Positions 22,906 through 59,927 of a stretch of 63,105 nt of DNA are shown one piece after another. A model generated the notes under the pieces. It was not told where the DNA came from, made no database searches, and saw only the letters and a list, made by a program, of their open reading frames with translations. Made by a program: the position numbers and the translations under genes. Location of the stretch: positions 1 to 63,105 of the forward strand of contig JBJEXV010000003.1 of the NCBI GenBank assembly GCA_051886175.1, given 5' to 3'. Each line of letters starts with the position of its first letter. Within the stretch, counting starts at the first letter, position 1. Source of the stretch: Candidatus Coprovivens sp. GTDB lineage: Bacteria > Bacillota_I > Bacilli_A > RF39 > UBA660.

Positions 22906-23664
22906 CTAATCTGTTAATACTGGTAAATTTTCTATATTTTTTTGTAACAAGAATGAGCCATCACTCACCGCTACTGAATCATAACTTAAATTAATTGTAT
23001 AATCTTCAAATTCCATAATTACATCATCTGTTACATTTTCGTATAAAACAGCTTCGTTTTTTTCGTAATTATAGACTGACAAATCTCCATGATAGTAGCA
23101 ATCTACAAACGACATAGGAGATAATTCAACTACGTTAGATCCCCATTTTAACGTTCCTGCTTCTGTAAAGAAATATAAATCTCCACCATCATAGATAAAC
23201 CCATCTATTAAGGCATACTTTAGTCCTTGATTTGTTATAATAGTTTGAATTCCTTCAGCATTTGCTACTGTATATCTGTTAAGTTTCTTTTGAATTTTTC
23301 CTTCTATCGGAAATATAACTGACATTGTATTTGGGAAGACTGCTTCTTCTTTATTAGCATAATATAAAGGTTCATTCATCAAATCCATTTCAAAATCATC
23401 ATCTATATAAAGTTTTGTTACCTTTTCATCATGATCTAATGTTATTTGCGAATCAAATTCCATTATCGCATCTTGTATAACCAAGTAAACTGGTTCGTTT
23501 TTAATTGAATATTGAACTAATTCTTGTTTAGCTTGGAATACTGCTAATAAAACCCCTACTAATAGTACGAACGCTGCAAAACTTATCACAATTGCAGGTG
23601 CGTGTTTAATTATCCATTTCTTAAAAGAAAACTTCTTTTTCTTATTTTCTGTTGTTTTAGTCAT
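22906..23664 (-). CDS. N-terminally anchored extracytoplasmic protein; first gene of the operon
   Basis: I chose the start at 23664 (MTKTTENKKKK) because GGAAGG lies upstream of it, which shortens the listed ORF by 5 codons. TM is PAIVISFAAFVLLVGVLLAVF. Only 12 nt separate it from the 3396-aa gene. Confidence 0.6.
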   Translation of the reverse strand: MTKTTENKKKKFSFKKWIIKHAPAIVISFAAFVLLVGVLLAVFQAKQELVQYSIKNEPVYLVIQDAIMEFDSQITLDHDEKVTKLYIDDDFEMDLMNEPLYYANKEEAVFPNTMSVIFPIEGKIQKKLNRYTVANAEGIQTIITNQGLKYALIDGFIYDGGDLYFFTEAGTLKWGSNVVELSPMSFVDCYYHGDLSVYNYEKNEAVLYENVTDDVIMEFEDYTINLSYDSVAVSDGSFLLQKNIENLPVLTD

Positions 23665-23707
23665 ATCTTTACCTTCCAATTCTATACAATTCTACACTAT
23701 ATACAAT

Positions 23708-23736
23708 ATAATAACACTAAAGTCCAAATCTATCAA
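23708..23736 (-). promoter_or_regulatory. Sigma-A-type promoter of the surface-protein/F1-like ATPase operon
   Basis: Minus strand reads TTGATA-17 nt-TATTAT, about 40 nt upstream of the 23664 start and just downstream of a terminator. Confidence 0.55.
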
Positions 23737-23758
23737 CGAATATCATTGATTTTTATTC

Positions 23759-23790
23759 ATAAAAAAAGAGTTTTTTTTGAAAAACTCTTA
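23759..23790 (-). terminator. Rho-independent terminator after the 540-aa gene
   Basis: Stem AAGAGTTTTT/AAAAACTCTT (23766-23775 and 23780-23789) followed by a T-run on the minus strand. It overlaps the stop codon. Confidence 0.7.
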
Positions 23791-25410
23791 GTTTGTATCT
23801 TTTGCGTTTGGTGTAGTTTCAATTATGTAATTTACTTCAGTATCAATCTTTGTTTTTTTACCATCATAACGATATAATGTTCCTGTTTTTGTTGTGTCAT
23901 TATAATCTGTTATATAGTATAAACCTTCCTCTTTAATATAGATGTATTTTTTCACTTCTTCTGATATTTTAGTTGATTTTTTACCATCAAATACATTTAA
24001 TGTTCCTACTCCACTAGCCATATCTTTCATATAATAGATTGATTTGCCATCATTTGAGATTGTTAAACTATTTCTACTGATATCATCAGCAATTTTAGTT
24101 GTTTTAGTACCACTTGCTATATAGTATGTTGCATCATTGTTTTCGTTGATGCTTTTATAGTAATAAACCCCATCTTCGTACGGATATAATTCACTTTGAA
24201 CTTCTTTTGCAATCTTTTTTGCTTTTCCTACAGACGAGCCGTTTAATTTTGAATACATCAAATTATCCTCATTATCTACATAATATACAGCATTTTCTGT
24301 CATAACTACACTACTTCCGTAATCGTAGTTATCAGTTACTTTAGTTGGTTTATTATTTTTATACAGGTAATACAGCGATAATTCATTTTCATTTGTAACT
24401 GTATATAAAACTTTTCTGTTTTCAACATCAATTTCAACTATGTCATAAATATTATCTGTAAGTTGTTTTTCTTTAGAATTAGAATAATATTTTAATGTAA
24501 ATGTAGGCGTATTTTGAATATAATATAATTTATCACATGATGAGTCATCACAATAGAAACTTTCTACATCTGATGCTATTTTAGTATGTTTATCTTTTTT
24601 TACATCATATCTATATAAAGCATTATTTGTATTAGTATATAATACATATTTTCCGTTTTCGCTTAGTTCAGCTAGAATGTATCCATCTACCAGTTTAGTT
24701 CTATCTTCTTTAGTGACATCAAAACTAATAAAATATAACGCTGAATTTTTTTCATAAATCATATTCTTATCATTATAATCTTGTACTGATGTAACGTCAT
24801 TATCAAGCAATTGTTTTGCTTCTTTAAAGTCGTATATGTATAAGTCGCTATCTGAATCTTGACCATAAATATATGTATCTTTTGGTGTAAATCCGTAGCT
24901 ATATGAAATATCATCAATAACTTTAGTTGATTCACCTTTTTTTGTATCATATACATATAAGTCTGTATTATTTTTAAATAAAATGTATCTACTAGAAGTA
25001 TTGGAATATTCTATACTACCAGTGCTTTGCATTTTTTTTACTTGTTCTTTATCTTTTACATCAGCACCGTGTTCTAGCATATAAACATCGTTATTAGACT
25101 TTTGATAGATTATAGGATATCCAATGTTACCTATACCTGCTCCTACGATAATATTTTTAGCAATGATAGCTATTATTACTACTGCAACTAAGATACCTAA
25201 AGATGTAAGTGTTCTAACAACTTGATTCTTATGGAATCTTACGTAATCTTTAGTTTTATCTACTATTTTTTTACATGTAGTAGCTAGTTTTTTAACTAAT
25301 CTTTTACATACTTTTTTTATGTTAAATTCCTTAGTTTCTTTTTTATCTACTTTTTCTGTTTTTTCTATTTCTTTTTCAGTATCTTTTTTTACTTTTTTTT
25401 CTTTTTCCAT
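23788..25410 (-). CDS. Single-pass membrane protein with a K/E-rich cytoplasmic head and an extracytoplasmic beta-propeller-like repeat domain
   Basis: 540 aa. Lys-rich N-terminal ~65 aa, then TM (LGILVAVVIIAIIAKNIIV). The rest shows repeated ...LY.YD / YYI... strand patterns, like TolB/DUF5050-type propellers (by eye). Confidence 0.55.
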   Translation of the reverse strand: MEKEKKVKKDTEKEIEKTEKVDKKETKEFNIKKVCKRLVKKLATTCKKIVDKTKDYVRFHKNQVVRTLTSLGILVAVVIIAIIAKNIIVGAGIGNIGYPIIYQKSNNDVYMLEHGADVKDKEQVKKMQSTGSIEYSNTSSRYILFKNNTDLYVYDTKKGESTKVIDDISYSYGFTPKDTYIYGQDSDSDLYIYDFKEAKQLLDNDVTSVQDYNDKNMIYEKNSALYFISFDVTKEDRTKLVDGYILAELSENGKYVLYTNTNNALYRYDVKKDKHTKIASDVESFYCDDSSCDKLYYIQNTPTFTLKYYSNSKEKQLTDNIYDIVEIDVENRKVLYTVTNENELSLYYLYKNNKPTKVTDNYDYGSSVVMTENAVYYVDNEDNLMYSKLNGSSVGKAKKIAKEVQSELYPYEDGVYYYKSINENNDATYYIASGTKTTKIADDISRNSLTISNDGKSIYYMKDMASGVGTLNVFDGKKSTKISEEVKKYIYIKEEGLYYITDYNDTTKTGTLYRYDGKKTKIDTEVNYIIETTPNAKDTN

Positions 25411-25478: not shown

Positions 25479-25513
25479 ATAAAAAATAATGACAGTATTA
25501 TGCTGCCATTATT
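25479..25513 (-). terminator. Rho-independent terminator after the 508-aa gene
   Basis: Minus strand AATAATGGCAG-cataata-CTGTCATTATT followed by TTTTTT. It overlaps the stop at 25498. Confidence 0.65.
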
Positions 25514-27024
25514 ATTTCTGGTTCTTCATATTGGAAGTTAATATCTTCTACAAATTTAATTAATTTAGAAATTGAAATATTAGCTTCAAATGTAACTTTT
25601 CCTGTTTCAGGATTTATTATTTTTATAGATACTTTTTTGTTATCTAATGGATTTATATTTATTTGACCATAGATAGCTGCTTGATGTAATAGGTATCCGA
25701 TTTTAGGATTATCAAAGCTTATTTCATCTATGTCATGTGTTTTATGATAGTAAAGAACATTTTGTAGTGAATTTCTTTTTTCAATTAGTTGTTCTTTATC
25801 TAATTCTATCTTTTTATATTTAGCAAATAAATCGTTGATTATTTTTTGTTTATGAGACAATTCTTCTCTATCTTTTTCAGCATCTAGTTCATTTATTTCA
25901 TCCATTAATGTAGCTATTTTTCTTTTCATATCTGCTACTTCAGGTGATGTTTCAGTGTGATCAATAACTGATATTATTTCATTTAATGTTATTTGTGTAT
26001 CTTGATGACTTTGTGATAGATATGTATCTATACTGAAATCACTTAATGATACTGTATCGTATTCTAAGTTACCATAGTTTAATAATGTGAATAACATAGT
26101 AGTTAATCCACAGATAGATTGTTGTTTTTCTTTATGTGGTAATCTAGATACATCTTTTTGTTCTTTAATTAATAGTGTTTTTTGTAATGTAGATAGTGCT
26201 ATATCATTAGATAGCATGTATTCTGTAAGCCACTTGCTTATTAAACGTTGTTGTTCAGTAATTTGGGCGTTATAAAATAATGGGCCTAATTCATTAGCTC
26301 TTTTTACTATGTATACCGGTGAAGGAATAGTAAATTTAGTTATACTAGGATTTAATTCTTCAGGAGTATATCTTGTAAATGTATCTATTATGTCATCTAC
26401 TTTTACTTGTTCTTTTTGAGATATTGTATTAGTAGTTTTCTTTCTTATTTTATTATATGTATCTTCCATATCTAATGTTGGAAGATTTGTTAATGTAACT
26501 TGGAATGTTTTAGTTTGATTTAAGTATATTATTAATGATTCTTCATCATATATTTTTGCATCTTTGTTTTTGTTATAAATGAATACATTATGATATTTAT
26601 ATGATTTCATAGTTTCTGCTAATCTATGTAACCAGATTGGGAAGATTGTTGTATCTAGTTCAGAACTAGTTATATGGATATTACCTTCTTTATCAAATTC
26701 ATATTCATTATTCTTTAATGCAGTTAATAATCTTTCATAAAATAAATCAGGATTATTTTTATAACTTAAATCTATATGTGGACATTCTATTGTAGTTTCA
26801 TACAATCCGGGGATTATTCCATTTTCTAAGAATGATTCTTGAGGAAATAATGGATTATTGTCATAGTATTTTAATAATGTATTTATTGATATTCTATTAA
26901 ATAAATATAGTTTAGAGTTAGTAAAAGAATCTGATTCACTTGGTAATACTGGAACAGTTTTGTTACCTTTGGAAGTTAAGCTATTCATTAAAATCTCGAT
27001 TGCTCTTAATTCATCTGTTGGCAT
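25498..27024 (-). CDS. Hypothetical 508-aa protein with a coiled-coil-rich C-terminal half
   Basis: Long ORF with an upstream RBS (AGAGGTG) and its own terminator. No motif recognised. Confidence 0.6.
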   Translation of the reverse strand: MPTDELRAIEILMNSLTSKGNKTVPVLPSESDSFTNSKLYLFNRISINTLLKYYDNNPLFPQESFLENGIIPGLYETTIECPHIDLSYKNNPDLFYERLLTALKNNEYEFDKEGNIHITSSELDTTIFPIWLHRLAETMKSYKYHNVFIYNKNKDAKIYDEESLIIYLNQTKTFQVTLTNLPTLDMEDTYNKIRKKTTNTISQKEQVKVDDIIDTFTRYTPEELNPSITKFTIPSPVYIVKRANELGPLFYNAQITEQQRLISKWLTEYMLSNDIALSTLQKTLLIKEQKDVSRLPHKEKQQSICGLTTMLFTLLNYGNLEYDTVSLSDFSIDTYLSQSHQDTQITLNEIISVIDHTETSPEVADMKRKIATLMDEINELDAEKDREELSHKQKIINDLFAKYKKIELDKEQLIEKRNSLQNVLYYHKTHDIDEISFDNPKIGYLLHQAAIYGQININPLDNKKVSIKIINPETGKVTFEANISISKLIKFVEDINFQYEEPEIIMAA

Positions 27025-28784: not shown

Positions 28785-29012
28785 CATCCTTTCTTTCATC
28801 AAAAAAGACATATTCATCATAAGGACGAATATGTCGTGTTACCACCTTAGTTTATGTATTGCTACACCTCAAAATCTTAACGCGATTAACGGAATATCTT
28901 GTATACAATATTCAACTCCAAAGCTTCTTCAATTAGTTTATATGTTCTTTTACACCTACCAAGAACTCTCTATAATATAAGGTCTAATTTACTCTTCTTT
29001 TTCTTCGTTTGT
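28785..29012 (-). promoter_or_regulatory. T-box leader (Glu specifier) controlling gltX
   Basis: On the minus strand: AGAGAG and GGTAGGTG stem-I elements, GAA codons in ...AATTGAAGAAGC..., and the T-box core AACTAAGGTGGTAACACG (core 28835-28846). The terminator GACATATTC/GAATATGTC (28807-28835) is followed by TTTTTT. Confidence 0.8.
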
Positions 29013-29018
29013 GATTAG

Positions 29019-29047
29019 ATTATAGTAAATTATTTTTTTATTGTCAA
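29019..29047 (-). promoter_or_regulatory. Consensus sigma-A promoter for the gltX T-box leader
   Basis: Minus strand TTGACA-17 nt-TATAAT. Confidence 0.7.
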
Positions 29048-29048
29048 A

Positions 29049-30812
29049 TTATTTTTTTGATTTTGTTAATGTTGATGATTTCTTTTCTTTATTTTTTTCT
29101 ATTTTAGTATCTATGAAATCTATCATAATATTTATATTAGGTGGCATTACTAATTGATAGAAATCAGCATATCTAATTGTTAAGTAATATGTTAATGCTC
29201 CATTATATATATCTTGCATTGTAATAAGTTGATCTTTTAGAGTATCTCCTTTTACATATGGTTTTATTCTGACGTTACCATGAGCAAATGAGTTACGGAT
29301 ATGAGCTATAATGTTAAAGTTTTTAACATGGTTATTAAAGTCTTTGTCCATAAATCTTTTTGCTTTTTCATATAATTCCTTTGCATCTTTTTCGGCTTGT
29401 TCACAAGCAATTACAGCATCCATTAGTTGTTGTTCTTTCGCTTCAGTTTTCTTAGCAGATGATCGACGATATCCTTCTAAATTTCTTTTCGCAATTTCTG
29501 TTCTTGCTGCTAAATCTATTGGGGCTTTTCTTAATGCTTTTAATTGGTTTTCAAAATCTTTAAATGAGACATCAATTGTCATATGGTCATCATCAAACCA
29601 ATCTAGTTTTAATCTTGCGAAGTTTAAGCATTCTCCTGATGCTATATCTTTTAGCGAAGTACTTCCTTGTTTAGAATATATTTCATCTAAACCATAGTGA
29701 TAGATACAATAGAAAGCATTCATTAATCCTGCTACTGTTATTTCATCTAGATACATCATGGATTGTCGTTGTAAGAATGAGACATCAGCATATACATCTT
29801 TATGTTCTGCATATGCTTTTATTACATTCATACTATTATATATAGCATTAGCAATTATTATGTTATCATCATCTTTTTCATTTAAGATTGCTCCTGCTAT
29901 TTTTTGCATTATTAATCTTTTTTCAATTGGTGATAATTTATTAAATAATTGTTTTTTATTCTTTAAAAAGAATGTTTCAATACGATTATAGTATTCAGTA
30001 TCAGGTACTGATATTTTTTCATATGATAGTTGAATATGAAGTTTTTTTAGTGCTGGTTGGTAAGCTGGATAGACACTATTAAAGATTTGTTCAAATTCCA
30101 AGTGTGGATGAGTATTTTTTATGTTCCACATTATTTCAAAGAATTGATCTAATCCTTGGCCATATTCTAACGTTCTTTCAAATCCTGGTTCAGGTATGTC
30201 TATAAATCTATAATAATAAACACCACTCATATAAGTACGTAATTGTTTTAGTGATTGCATTCTATTTTCTTTTTCAATATTTTGTTTTGTTGTCGATATT
30301 ATAGGGCGAATATTAGGACCAGTTAGTTTAAATTTTTCTACTGGTAATAATAATGTACTCATTCTATATAGTTCTTCAATTGTTATAGAACCAGTAAGAC
30401 CTTTGTTATTTAAAATTATATTATCTTTTTCAATGTAATAGTCACCATGTAATAGTTTGTTTCTTAATGTTTCTAATACATCTATTTTTTCTTCAAAAGA
30501 TAGTTCTCCTATTTTGTATTTAGTACCATCTGGTTGGATTAGGTTACCCATTAATGTTGTAAATACTGGATCGGATATTTTTAATTTTAATGAATCGTCT
30601 TCTTTTTTTAATAATCTTTCTTTAAATACTGATAATAATAATATTGCATGTGTGATAATTAAGTTTTTATATTCTTCACGAGTACCATTACCATCTAATT
30701 GATATGTTGAACCAATTTGTCCTGGAACGTAGTATTCATGATTTAGAAAGTTATTATATCCGCATGCTGTTCTTATTAAGGTTTGAGCATTTTTTAGTTT
30801 TTTACTTTCCAT
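29049..30812 (-). CDS. Tandem-HEPN protein (two RNxxxH motifs); putative RNase-type defence effector
   Basis: RNKLLH (30447-30464) and RNSFAH (29280-29297) were checked codon by codon. They lie about 390 aa apart, separated by a helical/coiled-coil region. Start set at 30812 (MESKKL) behind RBS AAAGGGG. Confidence 0.55.
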   Translation of the reverse strand: MESKKLKNAQTLIRTACGYNNFLNHEYYVPGQIGSTYQLDGNGTREEYKNLIITHAILLLSVFKERLLKKEDDSLKLKISDPVFTTLMGNLIQPDGTKYKIGELSFEEKIDVLETLRNKLLHGDYYIEKDNIILNNKGLTGSITIEELYRMSTLLLPVEKFKLTGPNIRPIISTTKQNIEKENRMQSLKQLRTYMSGVYYYRFIDIPEPGFERTLEYGQGLDQFFEIMWNIKNTHPHLEFEQIFNSVYPAYQPALKKLHIQLSYEKISVPDTEYYNRIETFFLKNKKQLFNKLSPIEKRLIMQKIAGAILNEKDDDNIIIANAIYNSMNVIKAYAEHKDVYADVSFLQRQSMMYLDEITVAGLMNAFYCIYHYGLDEIYSKQGSTSLKDIASGECLNFARLKLDWFDDDHMTIDVSFKDFENQLKALRKAPIDLAARTEIAKRNLEGYRRSSAKKTEAKEQQLMDAVIACEQAEKDAKELYEKAKRFMDKDFNNHVKNFNIIAHIRNSFAHGNVRIKPYVKGDTLKDQLITMQDIYNGALTYYLTIRYADFYQLVMPPNINIMIDFIDTKIEKNKEKKSSTLTKSKK

Positions 30813-30837
30813 AGTTATTCCCCTTTTAATGGTGGTT

Positions 30838-30866
30838 ATTATAGCATTAAGAGTGTTTTTTAACAA
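30838..30866 (-). promoter_or_regulatory. Sigma-A promoter of the tandem-HEPN gene
   Basis: Minus strand TTGTTA-17 nt-TATAAT, about 25 nt upstream of the start codon. Confidence 0.6.
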
Positions 30867-30891
30867 ATTATTGTATAAAAAAAGAAAGAAA

Positions 30892-31806
30892 CTATTTCTT
30901 TTCATTCTTTTTAGTTGTTTTCTTTTTAGGTTGTTTTGTTACGTAATCTTTGTTATATAGTTTTATTTCACCGTTATGGTAAGCTATTAAGATATGTTTC
31001 CATATTGATGAATGAACGTAACGAGCATTTTTAGGATCAACTGAATAACGTACTGTGTATTCTACATAGTCACCTACTATTTTCATATATATAGTTGGTT
31101 CGTAGCTATTGAAGTAAATACGATAGTCAGTTGAGACGTCATTAACTTGTTTTTTAAATTTTTCTGGGTTTAGTTTGATGATGTCGTTTTTGTTTACGAT
31201 ACGATATATTACTTCACGTGTTTTTTCAATGTCTGCATCTAATGGAATATTTATTGTAATTTCGTTCCAGATGAAATCGAATGCTTTGTTGTAGTTACGT
31301 AGCGGATATGTGAATATAATTGAGTTAGGTACGTGAGTTATGATACCTGTACTTTGACCTATGAAGTCAGCATTATTTACTTCTAGTAATTCGAAGTTTA
31401 AGGCATTTAAGTTGACTACGTCACCTTTATAGTTATTTATTTCTATTCTGTCTTCTATATCAAATGGTTTAGCTACTTTGATATATATTCCAGAAAAGAA
31501 ATTAAAGATGAAGTCTCTTAAGGCAATTGTGAATGCTGCAGATAGGAATGTAATTAATGTAAGGATGTTTGATAAATTAGCTGACCATATGAATATAAAG
31601 AATACTATTTTAATAATACTGATAGTTATTTTTAGTTTTTGTGTATATTCATATTCTTTTTTGTTGTTATCTATTTTCTTTAATAGTCTAATAATTATCT
31701 TTTTTATTATATCTAGTATTAGCCATATAATTATAGTAGTTATTGTTAGTACTATGTATTTTGGATCAATACTTAGTAATTTACTTATGTATTCTATTGT
31801 TTTCAT
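30892..31806 (-). CDS. Small-conductance mechanosensitive channel (MscS family)
   Basis: Three N-terminal TMs followed by the MscS signature region FFSGIYIKVAKPFDIEDRIEINNYKGDVVNLNALNFELLE. Confidence 0.7.
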   Translation of the reverse strand: MKTIEYISKLLSIDPKYIVLTITTIIIWLILDIIKKIIIRLLKKIDNNKKEYEYTQKLKITISIIKIVFFIFIWSANLSNILTLITFLSAAFTIALRDFIFNFFSGIYIKVAKPFDIEDRIEINNYKGDVVNLNALNFELLEVNNADFIGQSTGIITHVPNSIIFTYPLRNYNKAFDFIWNEITINIPLDADIEKTREVIYRIVNKNDIIKLNPEKFKKQVNDVSTDYRIYFNSYEPTIYMKIVGDYVEYTVRYSVDPKNARYVHSSIWKHILIAYHNGEIKLYNKDYVTKQPKKKTTKKNEKK

Positions 31807-31900: not shown

Positions 31901-32719
31901 TTACATTAATTTATTTTTTGTATCTTTTTCTAGTTCTTTTAAACTTTTTTCTGGTGTAGGAAGTTGTTCTGGCATTGTTCCACCATTTTTCTTTATTACT
32001 TCTCTAATATTCTTGCCAATATTGTAATGAGTTTCATTGGCGTTTTTTTCGCCAGTGATGTTATCCTTTTTTAATTTTGACTCTGTTTGAGTTATTCTAA
32101 AAAGATTAGCTGCTAGTTCTTCACTTCCCATATTATCAAGAATGTCTTCTCTATATCTTAATCCTTTTCTTTTGGCTATATCATCAGCAGTTTCTCCATT
32201 ATATAATCCTTTATAACCTGAGTTATGAAATTTATCAAAATTCTTTACTCCTGCTTCTTTAGCTGCTTGATTTAGTGAATAATTTCCTTTACGTGTTAAG
32301 TTTCTTTGATAGAATCGTTTTTCGTCTTCAGATAATGAATTGTACTCTTTTTCGGTTAATTCCATTTTTCGTGTTTGAATAGCAAAGTAAGTTTGGGCAA
32401 GTGCAATTACTTGTTTTCGGCTATCACCGTTTTGTGCTATTAAATAACAGGCGTGTCTTGATAATTTGTAATCTGTTTGTTTTCTAAGAGCTCCAGAACC
32501 TATTTGAACCATTTTGCCGGCGTGGGCAAAATGGTCATCAACGCATAGATTTGAATTCTTACATGCTAATATTGCCTTATTTATTGCATTTTCAAATCTT
32601 CTCCATTGTGTATACTCTAGTGCTTTTTGCAATTCTCTTGCTAACCAATATTCATTACCATACTCGTCGATATGTTTTATATCTTCAAATAAAATATTTC
32701 TTTCTTGTATAGTGTTCAT
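31901..32719 (-). CDS. dinD: DNA-damage-inducible protein D-like protein
   Basis: N-terminus FEDIKHIDEYGNEYWLARELQKALEYTQWRRFENAINKA...DHFAHAGKMV matches the DinD family pattern as I recall it. Confidence 0.65.
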   Translation of the reverse strand: MNTIQERNILFEDIKHIDEYGNEYWLARELQKALEYTQWRRFENAINKAILACKNSNLCVDDHFAHAGKMVQIGSGALRKQTDYKLSRHACYLIAQNGDSRKQVIALAQTYFAIQTRKMELTEKEYNSLSEDEKRFYQRNLTRKGNYSLNQAAKEAGVKNFDKFHNSGYKGLYNGETADDIAKRKGLRYREDILDNMGSEELAANLFRITQTESKLKKDNITGEKNANETHYNIGKNIREVIKKNGGTMPEQLPTPEKSLKELEKDTKNKLM

Positions 32720-37834: not shown

Positions 37835-37923
37835 TTAAAGAGACTTATTGTTGGTAAGTCTCTTTAATAGAAGTTGAACCTAGGGTTTCAACTTTAGAAT
37901 TCTAAGCCTGGGGGCTTAGAATT
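37835..37923 (-). terminator. Cluster of three consecutive hairpins at and after the RT 3' end; the last is terminator-like
   Basis: Three stems: an 11-bp stem AATTCTAAGCC/GGCTTAGAATT (37898-37923, inside the last RT codons); GTTGAA/TTCAAC (37873-37892); and a 13-bp stem TTAAAGAGACTTA/TAAGTCTCTTTAA (37835-37867) followed by TTTT. Confidence 0.55.
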
Positions 37924-39252
37924 TATTTTGTTAAATCTAATAAATATTCTTTTTTTTACCATATCTTTAAAAGATATTATATATTTTTCGTTTGGAAATA
38001 CTCTTTTTGCTCTGTTAACATAGGTGATAAATTTTAGATCTTCACTATTTCCTTGTTTCAATTGCTTTAATATCCAATGCTTATCTATTTTACTCTTTTT
38101 CTTTTTATTTAACAAAATACGATATTGTTCTCTTTCAACCATCGAATCAATTTTTCTATATATTTTATAGAAAAATTTTGTTAATGTTTTATCTCTAAAT
38201 TTAATATTAGTACCATCAAACGAAAAACCTAAATATGGAATAAAATTACCGGATGGTTTAAATCCATTTTCTTCATTATGTAACGACTTTATTTTACAAT
38301 TTTCATAAATATAACCTGACGTTTTGCTTTTATTTATTTTTAAATATTTGTAATCTTCTTTAAGTGTAGTTATATAATTCCATAAATCATCAATGGAATT
38401 AACTTCTTCTTTAGGTATTATTAAGATTAAATCATCAGAATATCTCATGTATAATCCACGCTTGTTCTTTGCATATTCATTTAATTTATAATCAAAATCT
38501 ATCATAAATACGTTAGCAAAAATGCCACTTAATGGAGACCCTTGGGGAATCCCATATTCATCATCATGTCGTGTAATTATTATATTTTTTTTAACATCAT
38601 TCCATGAAACTGTTTCAAAAAAAGATTTCAATTTTATAATAGAAGATTCCGTTTCGTACTTATTATTAATTAAAAAATCAATTATATCTTGACGTTCTAC
38701 ATAAGAATAAACTGTCATACTTCTAAATACCTTATACCAATCAGCATCTAATTTATTAACTTTTAATACCCTACAAATATTGTTCTTTAATATTGAATGT
38801 TCCAATGTGTCAAAGAAATCAGAAAAGTCACTGACTAGAACGTAACACTCTTTCAGTGCTTTCATTTTTTCAAAAGCATTAGAAGCAAACTCAATATTTG
38901 TCTTACCTCTTAAGTTAGTTCTATAAGCAACACTGCATTTATTTAAATCATTTTCATTACAGTAAATATTATATGCTTGATTAAGTTTAGATGAATACCA
39001 TTGGTATATATAGCGATCTATGTGAGATGCATATTTTATTGGTCTATCTTTATATTTATAATGATGACCTTCTATTATCTCTTCAGAATATTTTTTTAAT
39101 CTTATTGTTGAACTAATGAACGGGTAAAATCCGTGATGTGTAATGTATTCTTTATTCTGAATTCTATTCATAATATTACGATGCTTATATATATTAAACG
39201 GCATATCTATATGTTTATAATTTTTTTCTTTATATAGTCTTTTCTTTATCAT
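37894..39252 (-). CDS. Stand-alone reverse transcriptase (defence-associated DRT/UG/Abi-like)
   Basis: RT motif A VLVSDFSDFFDTL, motif GIPQGSPLSGIFANVFM, and catalytic YSDD (38431-38442, checked). YLGFSF follows, then a ~100-aa tail. No maturase, endonuclease or other fused domain. Confidence 0.8.
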   Translation of the reverse strand: MIKKRLYKEKNYKHIDMPFNIYKHRNIMNRIQNKEYITHHGFYPFISSTIRLKKYSEEIIEGHHYKYKDRPIKYASHIDRYIYQWYSSKLNQAYNIYCNENDLNKCSVAYRTNLRGKTNIEFASNAFEKMKALKECYVLVSDFSDFFDTLEHSILKNNICRVLKVNKLDADWYKVFRSMTVYSYVERQDIIDFLINNKYETESSIIKLKSFFETVSWNDVKKNIIITRHDDEYGIPQGSPLSGIFANVFMIDFDYKLNEYAKNKRGLYMRYSDDLILIIPKEEVNSIDDLWNYITTLKEDYKYLKINKSKTSGYIYENCKIKSLHNEENGFKPSGNFIPYLGFSFDGTNIKFRDKTLTKFFYKIYRKIDSMVEREQYRILLNKKKKSKIDKHWILKQLKQGNSEDLKFITYVNRAKRVFPNEKYIISFKDMVKKRIFIRFNKINSKPPGLEF

Positions 39253-40458: not shown

Positions 40459-40486
40459 ACAAAAAACATATCTTGCGATATGTTTT
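40459..40486 (-). terminator. Rho-independent terminator after the HTH-ImmA gene
   Basis: Stem AAAACATATC/GATATGTTTT (40463-40486) running into Ts on the minus strand. Confidence 0.6.
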
Positions 40487-41513
40487 ATTCTTCTATTAAT
40501 GGGTTGTGTTCTTGGTATAGAGATGAATTGTAGTTTATTATTTTATCGTGTGCTAGTCTATATACATAGAATGATTTAATTATGTTTAGGTTGTTTATAT
40601 TGTTACTTTGTTTTTTTATTGTTTGATATAGTTTATCATCTATCATCCAATTGAATGCAGTTTGATCTGCTTTTATTTCATAGTCTTCTACTTGTTTATC
40701 TTCAGTAGTTACTATACTACCACTTTTTGCTCTATTGAAGTCACTTTTGCAATGTGCTAGTTCATGTAGTAATGCAAAGTAGATGTCTGCATATCTTTTA
40801 TGTTTTTTAGTTATATAGATAGCTGGTTTATCATTTAATACTTTAAATGCTCCACGTATTTTAGATCCAGTTAAGTCTTTTTCTATAGCTAGGAAGATAC
40901 CATTATCATTAAATACTTTTATTAGTTCTTCTTTATTGAATATGTTTTTATGAGCTTGTTCTCTTATATAGTTAACTATTTTTTCAATATTTTCTTTTTT
41001 ATATTCTTTTACTTGTTGTTCTGATACTACTTTATAACATCTTTCTAACCATAGTACTAATAGTTCTTTTTTGTTATTATTGCTTTTATATAGTATTGAG
41101 TTATCTTCTTTATATATTGTTTCTGGATTAGTTATTCTTAAGTATTTTAATATATCTTTTGCTATTTCATAATCATCTAATATATCTGTATATCTATAGT
41201 TATATTCTTTACTTAGTTCTTTATAGTTAAATCTATTTATGAATTTACGTATTGTTAGATTATGTTTATCTAAGAATGCTTTTATTATTTTATCCATTTT
41301 AAAACTACGTTCTACATTTTCAATATATGATACTGGTATTTCTGTAACAAATGCTATGTTATATATCATATTTTGAGATATTTCAATGTTACCTTTTATT
41401 ATATCGATCATGTTCTTAGGTGTTGTATTTACTCTTTCAGCAAATTCTTTAACACTTATGTTTTTGTATTCTAGAAATTCTCCTAGTTGTTTACCAAATT
41501 CATTCATCATCAA
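40485..41513 (-). CDS. XRE-type HTH fused to an ImmA/IrrE-family zinc metallopeptidase (putative antitoxin/regulator)
   Basis: N-terminal HTH (ISVKEFAERVNTTPKNMIDIIKG) and C-terminal HExxH (FALLHELAHC). Overlaps the upstream toxin-like ORF by 14 nt. Confidence 0.7.
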   Translation of the reverse strand: MMMNEFGKQLGEFLEYKNISVKEFAERVNTTPKNMIDIIKGNIEISQNMIYNIAFVTEIPVSYIENVERSFKMDKIIKAFLDKHNLTIRKFINRFNYKELSKEYNYRYTDILDDYEIAKDILKYLRITNPETIYKEDNSILYKSNNNKKELLVLWLERCYKVVSEQQVKEYKKENIEKIVNYIREQAHKNIFNKEELIKVFNDNGIFLAIEKDLTGSKIRGAFKVLNDKPAIYITKKHKRYADIYFALLHELAHCKSDFNRAKSGSIVTTEDKQVEDYEIKADQTAFNWMIDDKLYQTIKKQSNNINNLNIIKSFYVYRLAHDKIINYNSSLYQEHNPLIEE

Positions 41514-41984: not shown

Positions 41985-42995
41985 TTATTTTGTTTCTAAA
42001 TTTAATTGTGCTCTTTCAAATAAATCAGTACTGTACTCTTTTAAGTCATCTATTTTATTTATATTATATTTTTTTATAATTTCATTCACGTAAAAATCAA
42101 TATCTTTTAAATCAATAATTCTATTAGAAGATTCATCTTCTTCTAATCCTTCACGAGCCATTTGCCATGGCTTAGTTAAGTGAGTCATTTCTCTTAGTAC
42201 TCTAGCACTATAACATCCAAAATATTTAATAATAGAATCTAAGTATTGTTTTTCATCTTCTTCTAATGTAAATTCATGTTCTTTTAATAATTCATTATAG
42301 TTAATAGTATTATTTTTATAATATGAAAAGCAGTCGTATATGTCTCTATATACAGGGCCATATTTCCATGCTTCTGCCGGTACTAAGAATAAATTTTTAT
42401 TTAGAAATTTTTCACTAAAGCATTGTGCAAAGTATAATATTTTTTGTAATGCTAATGGTGTTGTATCTTCAAGTTCTTTTACTATATATAGAGCACTATC
42501 ATATAGTTTAGAATTATCTTTATTCATTTGTAACTGTTTAGTTTTACCTAATGATTTTTTAAATGCTACTTCTGTTATTTTATCTTTATTACCTAGTAAA
42601 AATAGTTCATATAAATGTGGATCTTTATTTATATTTTTTAATAATTCTGAATTTTCTTTAGTTGGGTTTTGACCATCTAAGTATCTAGTAATAGTTATTT
42701 CACCTAATCCAAGTAATAATGATAATGGCTTTTTACCAATGTTATATTTTTCAATTATTTCTTCTATTTCTGAAATAGTTACTGTACCATATGCTTTTCT
42801 TATTTCGTTGTTAGCAGTTAAAACATTATAATCATTTAAATCATCATAAAATTCGTTATTACATTCATTACATACATAGTATTTTTCTAAAAATTCGAAT
42901 TTTTTATTATCGTAAAAAAATGTTTTTATTCGTTCATTGTATTTACAGTCAACATCTTTAAAACAATGTTCACAAAATTTTTTATATTTTTTCAT
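41985..42995 (-). CDS. Antitoxin-like protein: MqsA-type zinc ribbon + HTH + Panacea (DUF4065) domain
   Basis: CxxC...CxxC (CEHC...CNEC), HTH (KKPLSLLLGLGEITITRYLDG), and Panacea-like ALQKILYFAQCF...AWKYGPVYRDIY. Start set at 42995 (ATG behind AGGGTG). Confidence 0.6.
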   Translation of the reverse strand: MKKYKKFCEHCFKDVDCKYNERIKTFFYDNKKFEFLEKYYVCNECNNEFYDDLNDYNVLTANNEIRKAYGTVTISEIEEIIEKYNIGKKPLSLLLGLGEITITRYLDGQNPTKENSELLKNINKDPHLYELFLLGNKDKITEVAFKKSLGKTKQLQMNKDNSKLYDSALYIVKELEDTTPLALQKILYFAQCFSEKFLNKNLFLVPAEAWKYGPVYRDIYDCFSYYKNNTINYNELLKEHEFTLEEDEKQYLDSIIKYFGCYSARVLREMTHLTKPWQMAREGLEEDESSNRIIDLKDIDFYVNEIIKKYNINKIDDLKEYSTDLFERAQLNLETK

Positions 42996-43018
42996 GTATT
43001 TCACCCTATTCCTTATTT

Positions 43019-56233: not shown

Positions 56234-58396
56234 CTATTTTTTATTTTTTTTCTTTTTTTTGTTCTTTTTAGCAGCTGGTTTTTTAGGTGCTTCTGGTTTT
56301 TCTTCTTTTTTAAGAGCTTCGTCTAGTAATCTTACTAGTTCTTTGTGTTCAATTGTAGCATCTGAATCGATATGTTTATCTAATTCTAATGCTTCATCTA
56401 ATAATCTTACTAGTTCTTTATGTTCCATTGTAGCTGCAGAATCAACATGTTCTTCTTTTAATGCTTCATCTAATAATCTTACTAATTCTTTATGTTCAAT
56501 TGTAGCATCTGAATCAATATGTTCTTTTTCTAAAGCTTGGTCTAATAATCTTACTAATTCTTTATGTTCAATTGTAGCATCTGAATCAATATGTTCTTTT
56601 TCTAAAGCTTGGTCTAATAATCTTACTAATTCTTTATGTTCAATTGTAGCATCTGAATCAATATGTTCTTTTTCTAAAGCTTGATCTAATAATTTAACTA
56701 ATTCTTTATGTTCCATTGTAGCTGCAGAATCAACATGTTCTTCTTTTAATGCTTCATCTAATAATCTTACTAATTCTTTATGTTCAATTGTAGCATCTGA
56801 ATCAATATGTTCCTTTTTTAATGCTTCATCTAATAATCTAATTAGTTCTCTATGTTCAATTGTTGCATCTGATGGTTCGTTAACTTGAACTATTGATGGC
56901 TCATCATCTTTCTTCTTTTTGTTAAATAGTACGATCACTACTACAGTTGTAATAGATAGAATTACTGCTCCTCCTATGCAAATTAGAGCGGTTTCTAATG
57001 GTGTCATACTCTTTCCTCCCTTTTCTTCTTCTGGTTTGTCAGGTTCTTCAGTAGGTTCTTCTGGTTTATCAGGATCTACTGGTACAAACTCATAAGTCAC
57101 GTCTTCCTTAGATACCCATCCTATTACTCCATCGTATTCAACTAAAACGAAGCTACGTTCTATTGAAGATTCATTAGTAATATTAGGTATATCTTCTATA
57201 CTATACTCTTCACTAATATAACTCAATTTACTTCCTTTTGCAATAGTTATATCTAATTTTTCTGATTTATTGTTGTATTTATACATTGAAATTTTGCTTT
57301 TGGCATTAACTGTATTTTCTGCATTCCAACTGTATATTTCTGCAAAATCAGTTTCTTTTCCAAATATCCAATATTTTTTACCTTGGTAAGTAATATGATA
57401 TTTCATATCTAAGTTATTATAGTTTTCTGCACTTGTAATTATTTCATAATTAAAATCTAGTTTAGTTAAGTAAGGGATTGTTACGCCACTAACTGGTGTT
57501 GTGTCGTTATAGTTTTCATAAACTTTAAGACCATCTTTTTTAATTACTAGTAGTTCACCTTCGTATTCATCAGCAGTGATTGTTTCACCAGGTCCATTAT
57601 TGAAATAAGTAAATAACCAACCACTTATTCCATCTACTGTTACGTACATTGCTGTACATTTTGGTCCTGGATAAATGTATGTTGTATATGAAATGAATTG
57701 GCCACCTTTGATTGTACCTGTTATTGCACGATTTTCTTCATACAAATCATTTAAATTTGTATATAGATTAACATCAGCTGCTAGGAATGTTGTTTTTGGT
57801 TTTTTCATTACTACAACAGCTGGAATTGTGTTTTTGCTTTCGTATGGTGAATAACCTGCTAATCCATAAACATATACCCAACCTTTTATTCCGTTGTATT
57901 CAGTATATATCCACATTCTTCCAATACCTTCCATTGGATCGAAGCTATATTGAAAATCTAAATAAGTATCTTTTGGAATTAATGTATTTTCAATTTTACC
58001 GTAAACAATTGATGGTCCTTTATACATTTCTACATTTTCTAATAGTAGGTATCTGTCACCATCTTTGTTTTTTTCCATTTTGGAGAAGTCTATTTCATTT
58101 GAATAAACCATTACATCTTCAGCATTAAGTTCTAAATAATTATCATTGTAATTAACACTTAATGTAAGTTTACCTTCATATTGATGTTCGAATGTTACTG
58201 TTACTACTTCGTTATAAGGAATAATAACTTCTACTTCTTTTCCACCTTCCCAAGTTGTTGCAGTAGCTCCGTTTGGGTTAGTTATTATTACATCGTACTC
58301 GTATGATTCTGGTGCTCCCATGTCAGCATTTACTAACATTGGGAACACTAGGATTAAACATATTGTTAAAATGAACTTAAATAATTTATTCTTCAT
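56234..58396 (-). CDS. Exported SH3b-like repeat protein with a TM anchor and a cytoplasmic tail of eight 24-aa tandem repeats
   Basis: Signal peptide ...VFPMLVNA/DMGAPE. GWVYVY / GISGWLF / IGWVSKEDV SH3b-like signatures. TM ALICIGGAVILSITTVVVIVLF followed by KKKK, then (DATIEHKELVRLLDEALKEEHVDS)x8. Start set at 58396. Confidence 0.65.
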   Translation of the reverse strand: MKNKLFKFILTICLILVFPMLVNADMGAPESYEYDVIITNPNGATATTWEGGKEVEVIIPYNEVVTVTFEHQYEGKLTLSVNYNDNYLELNAEDVMVYSNEIDFSKMEKNKDGDRYLLLENVEMYKGPSIVYGKIENTLIPKDTYLDFQYSFDPMEGIGRMWIYTEYNGIKGWVYVYGLAGYSPYESKNTIPAVVVMKKPKTTFLAADVNLYTNLNDLYEENRAITGTIKGGQFISYTTYIYPGPKCTAMYVTVDGISGWLFTYFNNGPGETITADEYEGELLVIKKDGLKVYENYNDTTPVSGVTIPYLTKLDFNYEIITSAENYNNLDMKYHITYQGKKYWIFGKETDFAEIYSWNAENTVNAKSKISMYKYNNKSEKLDITIAKGSKLSYISEEYSIEDIPNITNESSIERSFVLVEYDGVIGWVSKEDVTYEFVPVDPDKPEEPTEEPDKPEEEKGGKSMTPLETALICIGGAVILSITTVVVIVLFNKKKKDDEPSIVQVNEPSDATIEHRELIRLLDEALKKEHIDSDATIEHKELVRLLDEALKEEHVDSAATMEHKELVKLLDQALEKEHIDSDATIEHKELVRLLDQALEKEHIDSDATIEHKELVRLLDQALEKEHIDSDATIEHKELVRLLDEALKEEHVDSAATMEHKELVRLLDEALELDKHIDSDATIEHKELVRLLDEALKKEEKPEAPKKPAAKKNKKKKKNKK
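56311..56872 (-). repeat. In-frame tandem repeat, 72-bp unit, about 8 copies
   Basis: The period was checked directly: gttctttttctaaagcttgg occurs at 56521 and 56593. Central copies are identical or nearly so. The array encodes the 24-aa repeat of the cytoplasmic tail. Confidence 0.9.
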
Positions 58397-59927
58397 ATTT
58401 TTTGTCATCCTCTTTTACTACTGGAAGAACTCCTGTAGTTGATGGAACTTTTATTTTGTTATCATCTTCATGTGTTTTTGCTACTGGTGTAATTTCTACA
58501 ACTGGTTCTTCTTTTTTATTTTGCTTTTTCTTGTTTACAAGAATAATACTTACTACTGCAGTTAATGTAGCAATAATTGCTGCTCCACCACAGATAAGTC
58601 CGATTTGTAAACCAGTTAGTTTTTTCTTTTTAACTGGTTGTGTTGGGTCTTCTGGTTGTTCTGGTGTTTCTATTACTTCTTCCATTTCATCATAATATTC
58701 AAATTCTTGTTTTGAATATTTTATTGTTTCATATTGAGCCCAACCTCTATCTTCACCATGTTCAATGTAATACCATGAATTGTTATCAGTATAATAAGTT
58801 AGTAAAACATCGATTGTTTCTCCTGATTTTATAGTAGTAACTTTTTCTAATGATTGTGGTTCTTTATATATTATTAAATCTTCTTTTAGTGTATAAATAC
58901 CTTTTGAGTATGATGTAATAAATAATTCACTATCACCTTTTAACCAATATTTTTCACCTTCGTATGTTACTTGATAAGCTTGGTTATATACAAAGTTCCA
59001 ATTATCATAGTCTGATTCTACTACTTCAGTAGTAACGCTATATTTTGCATCTAATAATGTATATTTATCAACAGTTAGTTTTGTTGGTTTTTCATCATAG
59101 ATATTTTTATAAAGTGCAAGTGGTTTATCAGATTTATGCATTAGTTTTAATTTACTGCTTACTACAGCATCTTCTACTGTTGGTTCACCATAGAATTCTC
59201 CCATATATACCCAACCACTTATTTTATCTGTTTCAATATAGTAACCAGTATTACGTGTATATGTATAACTATAATATTTTACGTCATATTCACCAGGTTC
59301 AAGTTCACCAGCAAGATTCTTTTTATAACGATCTGCATATATTGATAGTTTATTTTTTAGTACTAGTACTTTAGTATTTTTATTGGCGATTATTGCTACA
59401 CCTGAATTCATACCTGTTGTTGTGAATCCTTCATGTTGATATACGTAAATCCAACCTTTTGTTCCTTCATATTCAATGTATGCCCATTGTTCATCTCTAT
59501 ATTCAAAATCAAGTGTTACTCCTTTAGGAATTATTTTACCTACTTTGCCATACATAGTTGATGGACCTTTATACATTGCTACGTTTTCAAGTGTATAGTA
59601 CTTTATACCTTGTTCATTTTTATTAAAGTTTGTAAAGTCTATTTCTTCTGAAAAAACTTTAGCATCTTTTGAACTAATTTGACCATATATACCGTTATAT
59701 TCTACATCTAAATATAATTCGCCATCTTCTTCATATTCAAAATGTACTGTTATTTTTGTATCATATGGAATTGTTGTTTTTGTTCCGTTATAATCTTCTA
59801 TTTCTACACCATTTGGATTAGTTATTATTACATCATAATGATATGTTTCTGGTGCACCCATATCAGCATTAACCAATATTGGTAAAGTTAAAATACAAAT
59901 TAATGTTACTATTATTTTTTTTATCAT
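58386..59927 (-). CDS. Paralogous exported SH3b-like repeat protein with a TM anchor and a short tail
   Basis: It has the same signal peptide and mature N-terminus (LVNADMGAPETYHYDVIITNPNG) as the downstream gene. GWIYVY / ISGWVYM / RGWAQYE motifs; TM LICGGAAIIATLTAVVSIILV. No tail repeats. Confidence 0.65.
   Translation of the reverse strand: MIKKIIVTLICILTLPILVNADMGAPETYHYDVIITNPNGVEIEDYNGTKTTIPYDTKITVHFEYEEDGELYLDVEYNGIYGQISSKDAKVFSEEIDFTNFNKNEQGIKYYTLENVAMYKGPSTMYGKVGKIIPKGVTLDFEYRDEQWAYIEYEGTKGWIYVYQHEGFTTTGMNSGVAIIANKNTKVLVLKNKLSIYADRYKKNLAGELEPGEYDVKYYSYTYTRNTGYYIETDKISGWVYMGEFYGEPTVEDAVVSSKLKLMHKSDKPLALYKNIYDEKPTKLTVDKYTLLDAKYSVTTEVVESDYDNWNFVYNQAYQVTYEGEKYWLKGDSELFITSYSKGIYTLKEDLIIYKEPQSLEKVTTIKSGETIDVLLTYYTDNNSWYYIEHGEDRGWAQYETIKYSKQEFEYYDEMEEVIETPEQPEDPTQPVKKKKLTGLQIGLICGGAAIIATLTAVVSIILVNKKKQNKKEEPVVEITPVAKTHEDDNKIKVPSTTGVLPVVKEDDKKYEE

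Follow-up and report, generated by a model that had tools for sequence, protein, structure and literature searches.

A window of 63,105 nucleotides from Candidatus Coprovivens sp. (assembly GCA_051886175.1, contig JBJEXV010000003.1, positions 1 to 63,105) contains, on its minus strand between a gene for an MscS-like channel and gltX, a gene for a 587-residue protein that bears an Rx4H motif near each end. The initial annotation of this DNA had read the protein as a tandem-HEPN ribonuclease acting, independently of any RNA guide, as an abortive-infection effector. The analysis presented here indicates that the two motifs belong to sister modules of one HEPN type carried by a single chain, and that the gene occupies a slot in which strains with nearly identical flanks have strongly divergent alleles. 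The protein is probably a stand-alone ribonuclease of innate defence.

The gene and its product

The gene, its expression signals and the parts of its product are the following.

29049-30812, minus strand: twin-HEPN protein gene, 587 residues; start codon ATG at 30812, stop codon 29049-29051
30838-30866, minus strand: promoter-like site TTGTTA-17-TGcTATAAT (TG extension), 10 of 12 consensus matches, with a leader of about 20 nt before the start codon
30820-30827, minus strand: putative ribosome-binding site AAAAGGGG, GGGG-type, 7 nt 5' of the ATG, as read from the sequence
30318-30812, minus strand: N-terminal HEPN-like domain, residues 1-165; helices 2-23, 45-62, 81-89 and 106-121, beta-hairpin 125-144 and helix 145-154 in the AlphaFold2 model
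30447-30464, minus strand: HEPN motif 1, R117-N-K-L-L-H122, LETLRNKLLHGDYY; R in 129/136 and H in 134/136 relatives
29763-30317, minus strand: hypervariable alpha/beta middle domain, residues 166-350 (about 146-350), candidate sensor or specificity domain
29538-29762, minus strand: conserved helical block, residues 351-425, FYCxYHYGLDEIYS; 58% mean identity
29283-29555, minus strand: long Lys/Glu-rich helical hairpin of the AlphaFold2 model, helices 420-451 and 457-510, the second of which ends in motif 2
29280-29297, minus strand: HEPN motif 2, R506-N-S-F-A-H511, IAHIRNSFAHGNVRI; R in 134/136 and H in 134/136 relatives; within the match to Pfam PF18736
29052-29357, minus strand: C-terminal HEPN core, residues 486-587, comprising the motif, beta-hairpin 514-547 and helices 548-586

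The open reading frame (ORF) in the ORF list runs from 29049 to 30905 on the minus strand and gives 618 residues when counted from its first ATG. Thirty homologues drawn from a collection of 5.8 billion proteins are each 576-596 residues long, however, and their first methionine aligns with the ATG at 30812 (MESKK/METKK). Since, in addition, both the ribosome-binding site and the promoter-like site lie within the upstream extension of the 618-residue frame, the 587-residue product called by the initial annotation (29049-30812) is the right one, and not that starting at 30905. The claim that the gene has its own consensus promoter holds in part. The TTGTTA-17-TATAAT site is a 10/12 match and a plausible promoter, but such sites are no commoner in this AT-rich stretch than in its shuffles (19 found, 17.7 expected), and the match is therefore not statistically distinctive.

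Both motifs are present in the DNA where the initial annotation had placed them, RNKLLH near the N-terminus and RNSFAH near the C-terminus, and both are nearly invariant in relatives. In an alignment of 30 sequences that are 23-96% identical to the query (alignment A1), the invariant positions include R117, K119, L120, H122 and G123 around the first motif, and R506, N507, H511 and G512 around the second. The arginine and the histidine of both motifs are kept in 129 of 136 full-length family representatives, and five others differ by R117K alone. Two members, P0074 and P0150 (578 and 579 residues, with 24% identity between them), no longer carry either Rx4H motif and have also lost H372, D376 and E377. 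Loss of a single site was observed in none of the 136 members, the sole two motif-losers having lost both at once, which argues that the two sites, and probably the YHYGLDEIYS block as well, act as one unit. P0074 and P0150 may represent a catalytically dead branch that retains the scaffold.

Conservation is very unevenly distributed along the chain. The catalytic blocks average 55-58% pairwise identity (55% for residues 58-145 of the N-terminal domain), in contrast to 28% both for residues 215-350, within the middle domain, and for the hairpin arms. Over its whole length the middle domain has a mean pairwise identity of 28-36%, and in two alleles from the same species (P0006 and P0015) it is only 16-26% identical, 16% being the lowest value. 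The hairpin arms display the gene's highest ratio of nonsynonymous to synonymous substitution rates (dN/dS, 0.26-0.89). Within the conserved helical block, F367, Y371, Y373, L375 and S380 are invariant in A1; the C-terminal HEPN domain probably begins with the helices of this block, which would contribute H372, D376 and E377 to it. The Lys/Glu-rich coiled coil that the initial annotation had placed between the motifs corresponds to the predicted helical hairpin, but the variable alpha/beta domain and the conserved block lie there too. Likewise, the remark that no sensor was evident can be revised, the hypervariable middle domain being a candidate built-in sensor.

A subgroup of the family reaches 700-745 residues (e.g. 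L013 3854-6085 and L014 266-2383) by virtue of an extra N-terminal extension of about 35 residues and a C-terminal one of about 150, neither of which has a Pfam match.

HEPN affinity of the two modules and the single-gene layout

When 1.84 billion representatives were searched exhaustively with a profile, 321 clusters were found at E<=1e-3, 251 of them at E<=1e-10. Most of these clusters are 545-610 residues long and are matched end to end. The relationship between the two motif-bearing regions was examined by aligning N-terminal (residues 40-165) and C-terminal (residues 440-587) sub-profiles with hhalign. When built from 136 full-length members, the two sub-profiles align with a probability of 93.5% (P=2.4e-7), in a register that superimposes I-R-N-K-l-A-H-G-d-f-x-I, a hairpin and a helix on I-R-N-s-I-A-H-G-N-v-x-I, a hairpin and a helix. 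The same comparison was weak with 30 sequences (P=0.009) and reached significance with 136. It follows that the N- and C-terminal modules are sister copies of a single HEPN type.

The AlphaFold2 model built on A1 is confident and compact (predicted local distance difference test score, pLDDT, 87.7; predicted template modelling score, pTM, 0.85). In this model helix 106-121 ends in motif 1 and helix 457-510 in motif 2, and after either motif come a hairpin and another helix. The canonical location of Rx4-6H in HEPN domains is precisely the end of a helix, with a loop after it (PMC3710099), and both of the motifs, nearly invariant among the 136 relatives, occupy this position in the predicted helices.

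The C-terminal module also resembles known HEPN profiles. Pfam PF18736 (HEPN pEK499_p136) matches residues 469-555 over profile positions 56-138 with an E-value of 3.4e-5 and 24.1 bits, the gathering cut-off being 26.6 bits. At E<0.1, PF18736 matches 16 of 30 family members (best E-value 7.6e-6). Sub-threshold matches to the PADLOC models RTasHEPN and CARF_HEPN were obtained in the C-terminal region of 17 and 12 of the 30 members, respectively. Judging from these scores, the C-terminal module would at best be a distant and differently built relative of PF18736, and not a member.

The space on either side of the gene is taken up by identifiable signals. Downstream, these belong to gltX.

29019-29047, minus strand: gltX promoter, perfect TTGACA-17-TATAAT (12/12), driving the T-box leader and gltX
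28818-29014, minus strand: gltX T-box leader (Rfam RF00230, 117 bits), starting directly 3' of the HEPN stop codon; terminator 28835-28807

Upstream, the intergenic region of 80 nt holds the promoter-like site and the ribosome-binding site. Because the gltX signals follow the stop codon immediately, no space is left for a guide or antitoxin RNA. A scan of the window at Rfam gathering thresholds returned the T-box alone, and in particular no RF03085; no tandem RNA repeat was found upstream of the gene. There is no CRISPR-like repeat array or tRNA gene in the window, and neither a CRISPR array nor Cas1 in the 1.47-Mb, 75%-complete assembly, so that the absence of an array nearby, as the initial annotation had it, extends to this portion of the genome. 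Three k-mer array candidates in the assembly turned out to be coding tandem repeats. The window itself has a 72-bp tandem repeat (7.9 copies, 88% matches) at 56303-56872, which is coding, lying within a 724-residue ORF (56234-58408), and is not a CRISPR array. The earlier statement that no partner is evident also stands. No antitoxin-sized ORF adjoins the gene, and neither a small co-oriented partner gene nor a conserved non-coding neighbour was found in the contexts examined. No neighbour is common to all contexts, which implies a one-gene system.

The allele slot and its genomic contexts

Metagenome contigs from close relatives, whose GltX is 95-96.5% identical to that of the window, keep the gene order topoisomerase III, KilA-N, a gene denoted x, a 633-residue orphan, MscS, the HEPN gene, gltX, genes for proteins of 502, 515 and 255 residues, and a giant protein gene. 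Two of these contigs, L001 and L005, encode flanking proteins that are 97.8-99.8% identical each, while their twin-HEPN proteins share 33% identity. At the DNA level, they are 96-100% identical through MscS and the intergenic region, about 50% identical from the start codon on, and again 98-100% identical within about 20 nt past the stop codon. An equally sharp 3' boundary separates the window from L070, L006 and L073, and L073 from L001 and L005. The slot holds at least five allele classes (percentages give identity to the window protein): that of the window and P0001, P0002 (84%), P0004 (64%), P0006 (46%), and P0014/P0015 (37-38%). In a maximum-likelihood tree, the slot alleles fall into different deep clades, where they are interleaved with alleles from other genomic contexts.

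For the closest pair of alleles, dN/dS is 0.13 (0.08 for gltX) and the synonymous divergence, dS, is 0.70 in the gene as opposed to 0.36 in gltX. The alleles are therefore functional, under purifying selection and older than the flanks. They arrived by recombination and did not arise through mutation at the site. No att-like repeats or cassette sites flank the gene, where short chance repeats only were found. A diversity-generating retroelement using the nearby reverse transcriptase was considered and rejected: divergence extends over the whole gene and is not confined to one variable region, the reverse transcriptase is of the Drt2 type, and it is missing in L001. I found no description in the literature of gene-exact allelic hypervariability at a single slot for proteins of the twin-HEPN type.

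The distribution of the family is patchy. Among 27 species representatives of the genus there is one strong match, to the window's own genome, and two weak ones; in the other 23 species having gltX, neither the HEPN gene nor the 508-residue neighbour lies within 1.5 kb of it. At the level of the order, a homologue is present in 17 of 151 genomes, from 12 of 87 genera, these genomes being 1.0-1.5 Mb in size. Named records with homologues are metagenome-assembled genomes of uncultured gut or rumen 'Bacilli', 'Tenericutes' and Candidatus Coprovivens.

The minus strand carries all genes between 22.9 and 44.6 kb of the window. The main landmarks upstream of the HEPN gene are as follows.

30892-31806, minus strand: MscS-like channel, upstream neighbour
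31901-32719, minus strand: DinD-like Bro-N protein, PADLOC PDC-S13 (NCBIfam PRK11525, E=6e-105)
37894-39252, leader to about 39593, minus strand: stand-alone Drt2-type defence reverse transcriptase, 452 residues (PADLOC PDLC03757, E=5.5e-117)
40485-41513, minus strand: PD-Lambda-2_B-like protein, 342 residues (E=5e-17), further defence content
41985-43004, minus strand: MqsA-like plus SocA/Panacea antitoxin protein, 339 residues, further toxin-antitoxin content

A 638-residue orphan, KilA-N (PDC-S22), topoisomerase III and toxin-antitoxin genes are also found upstream. Drt2, DinD/PDC-S13, KilA-N/PDC-S22, the PD-Lambda-2_B-like protein and toxin-antitoxin genes all lie within 14 kb of the gene. 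The position of DinD is taken by an unrelated 179-residue gene in L001, L002 and L005 and constitutes a second variable slot of the island. The syntenic contig L001 has no Drt2 reverse transcriptase; a radical-SAM gene stands before topoisomerase III there. Paralogy between the HEPN protein and the large orphan proteins (508 and 638 residues) was ruled out, BLASTP having found nothing.

Downstream of gltX, the minus-strand stretches 22906-25410 and 25498-27024 encode two membrane-anchored proteins, of 540 and 257 residues, and the 508-residue orphan. The two membrane-anchored proteins are 43-50% identical between the window and L001. The orphan is 64% identical in the same comparison despite a GltX identity of 95%, and all three proteins are about 99% identical between L001 and L005. 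The three are fast-evolving surface or orphan genes which, unlike the HEPN gene, are not swapped.

A scan of metagenome contigs gave at least 18 loci. The gene follows a complete type I restriction-modification (R-M) system in L007 and DarT-Macro in L021, and in L025 its surroundings include an AAA_13/PDC-S06 ATPase and a deaminase. L021 and L022 share an upstream gene that is 98% identical, whereas the cargo beside the HEPN gene differs and the HEPN proteins are 50% identical. In a second clade, the gene comes after Abi_2, HtrA and CorA genes (PolC-like...Abi_2-HtrA-(CorA)-gene) and the HEPN protein is the fastest evolving, with 37-44% identity against 77-89% for a 1522-residue neighbour. The Abi_2 protein of this clade of gut Bacilli (L008, L009, L011, L015, L016 and L017) is 317 residues long, AbiD/F-like with an RNLCAH motif, and 82-99% identical, an unusually high conservation; its gene lies two to three genes, about 3 kb, upstream of the HEPN gene, and the intervening HtrA-like gene is variable (40-48%). 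The neighbours listed here (Drt2, PDC-S13, PDC-S22, type I R-M, DarT-Macro and PDC-S06), together with the patchy distribution, fit a defence gene.

Interpretation and comparison with known systems

The explanation that best accounts for these data, with a probability of roughly 60%, is that the protein is a stand-alone, single-chain twin-HEPN ribonuclease serving in innate defence against phages or mobile elements. It draws on what the sequences show: two conserved motifs, an internal duplication, the HEPN affinity of the C-terminal module, a single-gene layout lacking CRISPR or guide components, a slot with divergent alleles, a scattered distribution, and defence genes as neighbours. From these I infer that the protein cleaves RNA at a composite active site, that its middle domain acts as a sensor, and that it serves defence, whether by abortive infection or directly. 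A conflict or defence role, as held by the initial annotation, fits the neighbourhoods, the patchiness and the allelic diversity, but abortive infection is one possible outcome only.

The proposed sequence of events is as follows. Duplication or fusion of one HEPN type would have produced the two sister modules. R117/H122 and R506/H511, probably aided by H372, D376 and E377, would form one intramolecular composite ribonuclease site, in the manner of Cas13. The enzyme would be produced constitutively from its own promoter and held off by autoinhibition until an infection cue is recognised by the hypervariable middle domain (about residues 146-350). The change is perhaps transmitted by the long hairpin, the second helix of which leads into motif 2. 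Recognition would trigger cleavage of RNA (tRNA, mRNA or invader RNA) and stop phage growth, whether or not the cell itself is arrested. Phage selection would maintain many old, divergent alleles, which strains would swap by homologous recombination in the conserved flanks.

Several observations weigh against this explanation. Foldseek comparison of the full model with PDB and BFVD retrieved no HEPN, Cas13, RnlA, Abi or other structural relative, and a separate model of the N-terminal domain (pLDDT 74.5) retrieved none either, the best E-value across models being 0.1-0.2. The comparison with the Cas13, Abi and RnlA families that the initial annotation had proposed thus returned no match for either model; its tandem-HEPN reading is supported in part, by two conserved motifs, internal homology, C-terminal HEPN affinity and helix-end position. 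The N-terminal domain has no Pfam match (16 N-terminal domains, no recurrent family) and no PDB profile match, the PF18736 match of the C-terminal module lies below the Pfam cut-off, and no PADLOC defence model scores above noise for this protein. Searches of PDB sequences with full-length and N-domain profiles, and of NCBIfam, also gave nothing. These Foldseek and profile negatives are weak, because Cas13an itself was not linked to other Cas13s by Foldseek and hidden Markov models (HMMs) (PMC12165695). Furthermore, the protein could dimerise N to N and C to C instead of pairing its modules intramolecularly; tblastn against phage and plasmid collections found no homologue; and the fixed chromosomal position in two clades also fits vertical inheritance of a cellular function. 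Finally, the surface genes for the 540- and 257-residue proteins are about as divergent as the HEPN gene between the window and L001. Fast evolution in this region is therefore not unique to the HEPN gene, although L001 and L005 differ at the HEPN gene alone.

Four other explanations were weighed. The first, which I consider unlikely, is a conflict toxin directed at something other than phages, either a self-contained addiction or exclusion ribonuclease, or a weapon against plasmids, conjugative elements or rival strains, the allelic diversity then corresponding to incompatibility groups. The catalytic and diversity evidence is identical to that for the defence reading, and the nearby toxin-antitoxin genes, KilA-N, DinD and topoisomerase III are typical of mobile elements too. 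However, in none of the contexts does the gene adjoin an antitoxin gene, an immunity gene or a domain for secretion or delivery; the slot has no integrase or att-like repeat, and no copy was found on plasmids or phages.

The second, appreciably less probable, is a lineage-specific cellular ribonuclease for RNA processing, decay or stress, vertically inherited and fast-evolving. It would agree with the fixed position in two clades (MscS-gene-gltX and PolC-like...Abi_2-HtrA-(CorA)-gene), with dN/dS values well under 1 and with a simple, constitutive-looking promoter. But the gene is missing from most species of the genus and order, it adjoins R-M and DarTG in other genomes, and a housekeeping enzyme would not tolerate 33%-identical alleles in near-identical strains with breakpoints at the gene ends.

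According to the third, the motifs belong to a non-catalytic helical scaffold that binds a ligand or nucleic acid, or the N-terminal one does not mark a HEPN site. The failure of Foldseek, Pfam and PDB to find a HEPN match for the N-terminal domain, and the persistence of full-length ORFs in the motif-less P0074 and P0150, are in line with this possibility. It is made very improbable by the near-invariance of arginine and histidine in both motifs across 136 divergent sequences, by the homology of the N-terminal motif region to the C-terminal one, which matches HEPN models, and by the canonical structural position.

Least probable of the four is a Cas13-like RNA-guided or RNA-sensing nuclease, with its guide elsewhere or outside an array and kin to the compact ancestral Cas13an lineage: its layout (HEPN1 near the N-terminus, HEPN2 C-terminal, 587 residues) resembles that of Cas13b and Cas13an (429-577 residues) and the sequence and structure negatives are weak for the reason given above, but neither the window nor the assembly has a CRISPR array or Cas1, the flanks are explained by promoter, ribosome-binding site and T-box, and there is no RF03085 or other Rfam match, no conserved non-coding neighbour and no PADLOC Cas13 match.

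HEPN ribonucleases usually assemble their active site from two chains, and Cas13 was long the sole well-studied exception. A CRISPR-free family of about 320 clusters and about 580 residues with two sister HEPN modules would be a second natural single-chain solution, and bears on the origin of Cas13 from defence ribonucleases. A more tentative proposal, possible though on balance doubtful, is that the family is an independent, CRISPR-free instance of the step proposed for that origin, in which two sister HEPN genes fused to give an intramolecular site with a swappable, hypervariable recognition domain. On that proposal, populations of one gut species would hold an ancient library of specificity alleles at a single slot, a balanced polymorphism of a ribonuclease immune sensor akin to that of the major histocompatibility complex. 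In its boldest form, nucleic acid would be what is recognised, and re-targeting by domain swap would be possible. Strains that are about 99% identical and whose alleles differ mostly in one internal domain provide natural material for mapping sensor recognition, and the slot lends itself to asking how balancing selection acts on immunity genes of uncultured bacteria whose genomes measure 0.7-2.4 Mb. A compact, self-contained, trigger-activated ribonuclease could also serve as a tool.

The architecture is not a new category: 12 AlphaFold-DB clusters with an intramolecular HEPN dimer were reported in 2024, two of them CRISPR-linked and ten not beside arrays (Science 2024, PMC12165695). Close in build is Cas13an, whose 429-577 residues (PMC12165695) invalidate the statement in the initial annotation that the protein is much smaller than Cas13. 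Like the query, Cas13an is a compact chain with two Rx4H HEPN modules that look as if two closely related HEPN genes of defence type had been fused. By contrast, the query has no adjacent array or CRISPR RNA, no conserved adjacent RNA and no detectable similarity to Cas13, whether by PADLOC Cas13 models, PDB sequences or Foldseek, a negative that is weak for very divergent subtypes; and it has, between its modules, the hypervariable alpha/beta middle domain and a helical hairpin of about 90 residues in addition. No term in the supplements of the Cas13an paper links its clusters to the query family (PMC12165695).

For the C-terminal module (RNSxAH followed by a hairpin), PF18736 gives the best profile match. 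Its type protein is a 166-residue single-domain 'HEPN family nuclease' of the E. coli plasmid pEK499 (NC_013122 111726-112226, MRNSVAH), which the profile covers end to end (E=1e-49). The query, with 587 residues, a second module and extra domains, does not share this single-domain architecture. PF18736 genes are reported beside R-M, ART and Macro genes (PMC3710099), and similar neighbours occur here in L007 (type I R-M) and L021 (DarT-Macro). AbiD/AbiF (Abi_2, PF07751), the lactococcal-type abortive-infection HEPN proteins proposed as sister to the Cas13an HEPN domains, have an RN..AH-type motif as in the query but, unlike it, a single HEPN. Membership in Abi_2 was rejected, there being no Pfam match, P-values of 0.027 (N) and 0.18 (C) with hhalign against six Abi_2 proteins, and no abiF non-coding RNA (RF03085) in the window. 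The RnlA/LsoA family was likewise rejected, with no Pfam, NCBIfam or PADLOC match and no small RnlB/LsoB-like partner in any context.

Two stand-alone defence proteins offer the nearest functional parallels. ApeA, of 601 residues, combines a C-terminal HEPN domain (RNKITH) with a non-catalytic sensing part and depends on the HEPN arginine (bioRxiv 10.64898/2026.03.20.713152). Like the query it is a single-gene system of about 600 residues, but it has one HEPN and forms its active site by homodimerisation; ApeA models gave no Pfam or PADLOC match to the query family at E<=0.1. DARNA (PD-T7-3), of 456 residues, has an N-terminal HEPN domain of about 160 residues with R117/H122, followed by a sensing domain, and is an autoinhibited tRNA anticodon nuclease, activated by single-stranded DNA and active as a dodecamer of HEPN dimers (bioRxiv 10.64898/2026.02.22.705581). 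It has a single HEPN and none at the C-terminus, and the query has no match to the PADLOC PD-T7-3 model; the R117/H122 numbering common to both proteins may be a coincidence. By analogy, the twin-HEPN protein would work most like ApeA and DARNA, but with both catalytic halves in one chain, as in Cas13.

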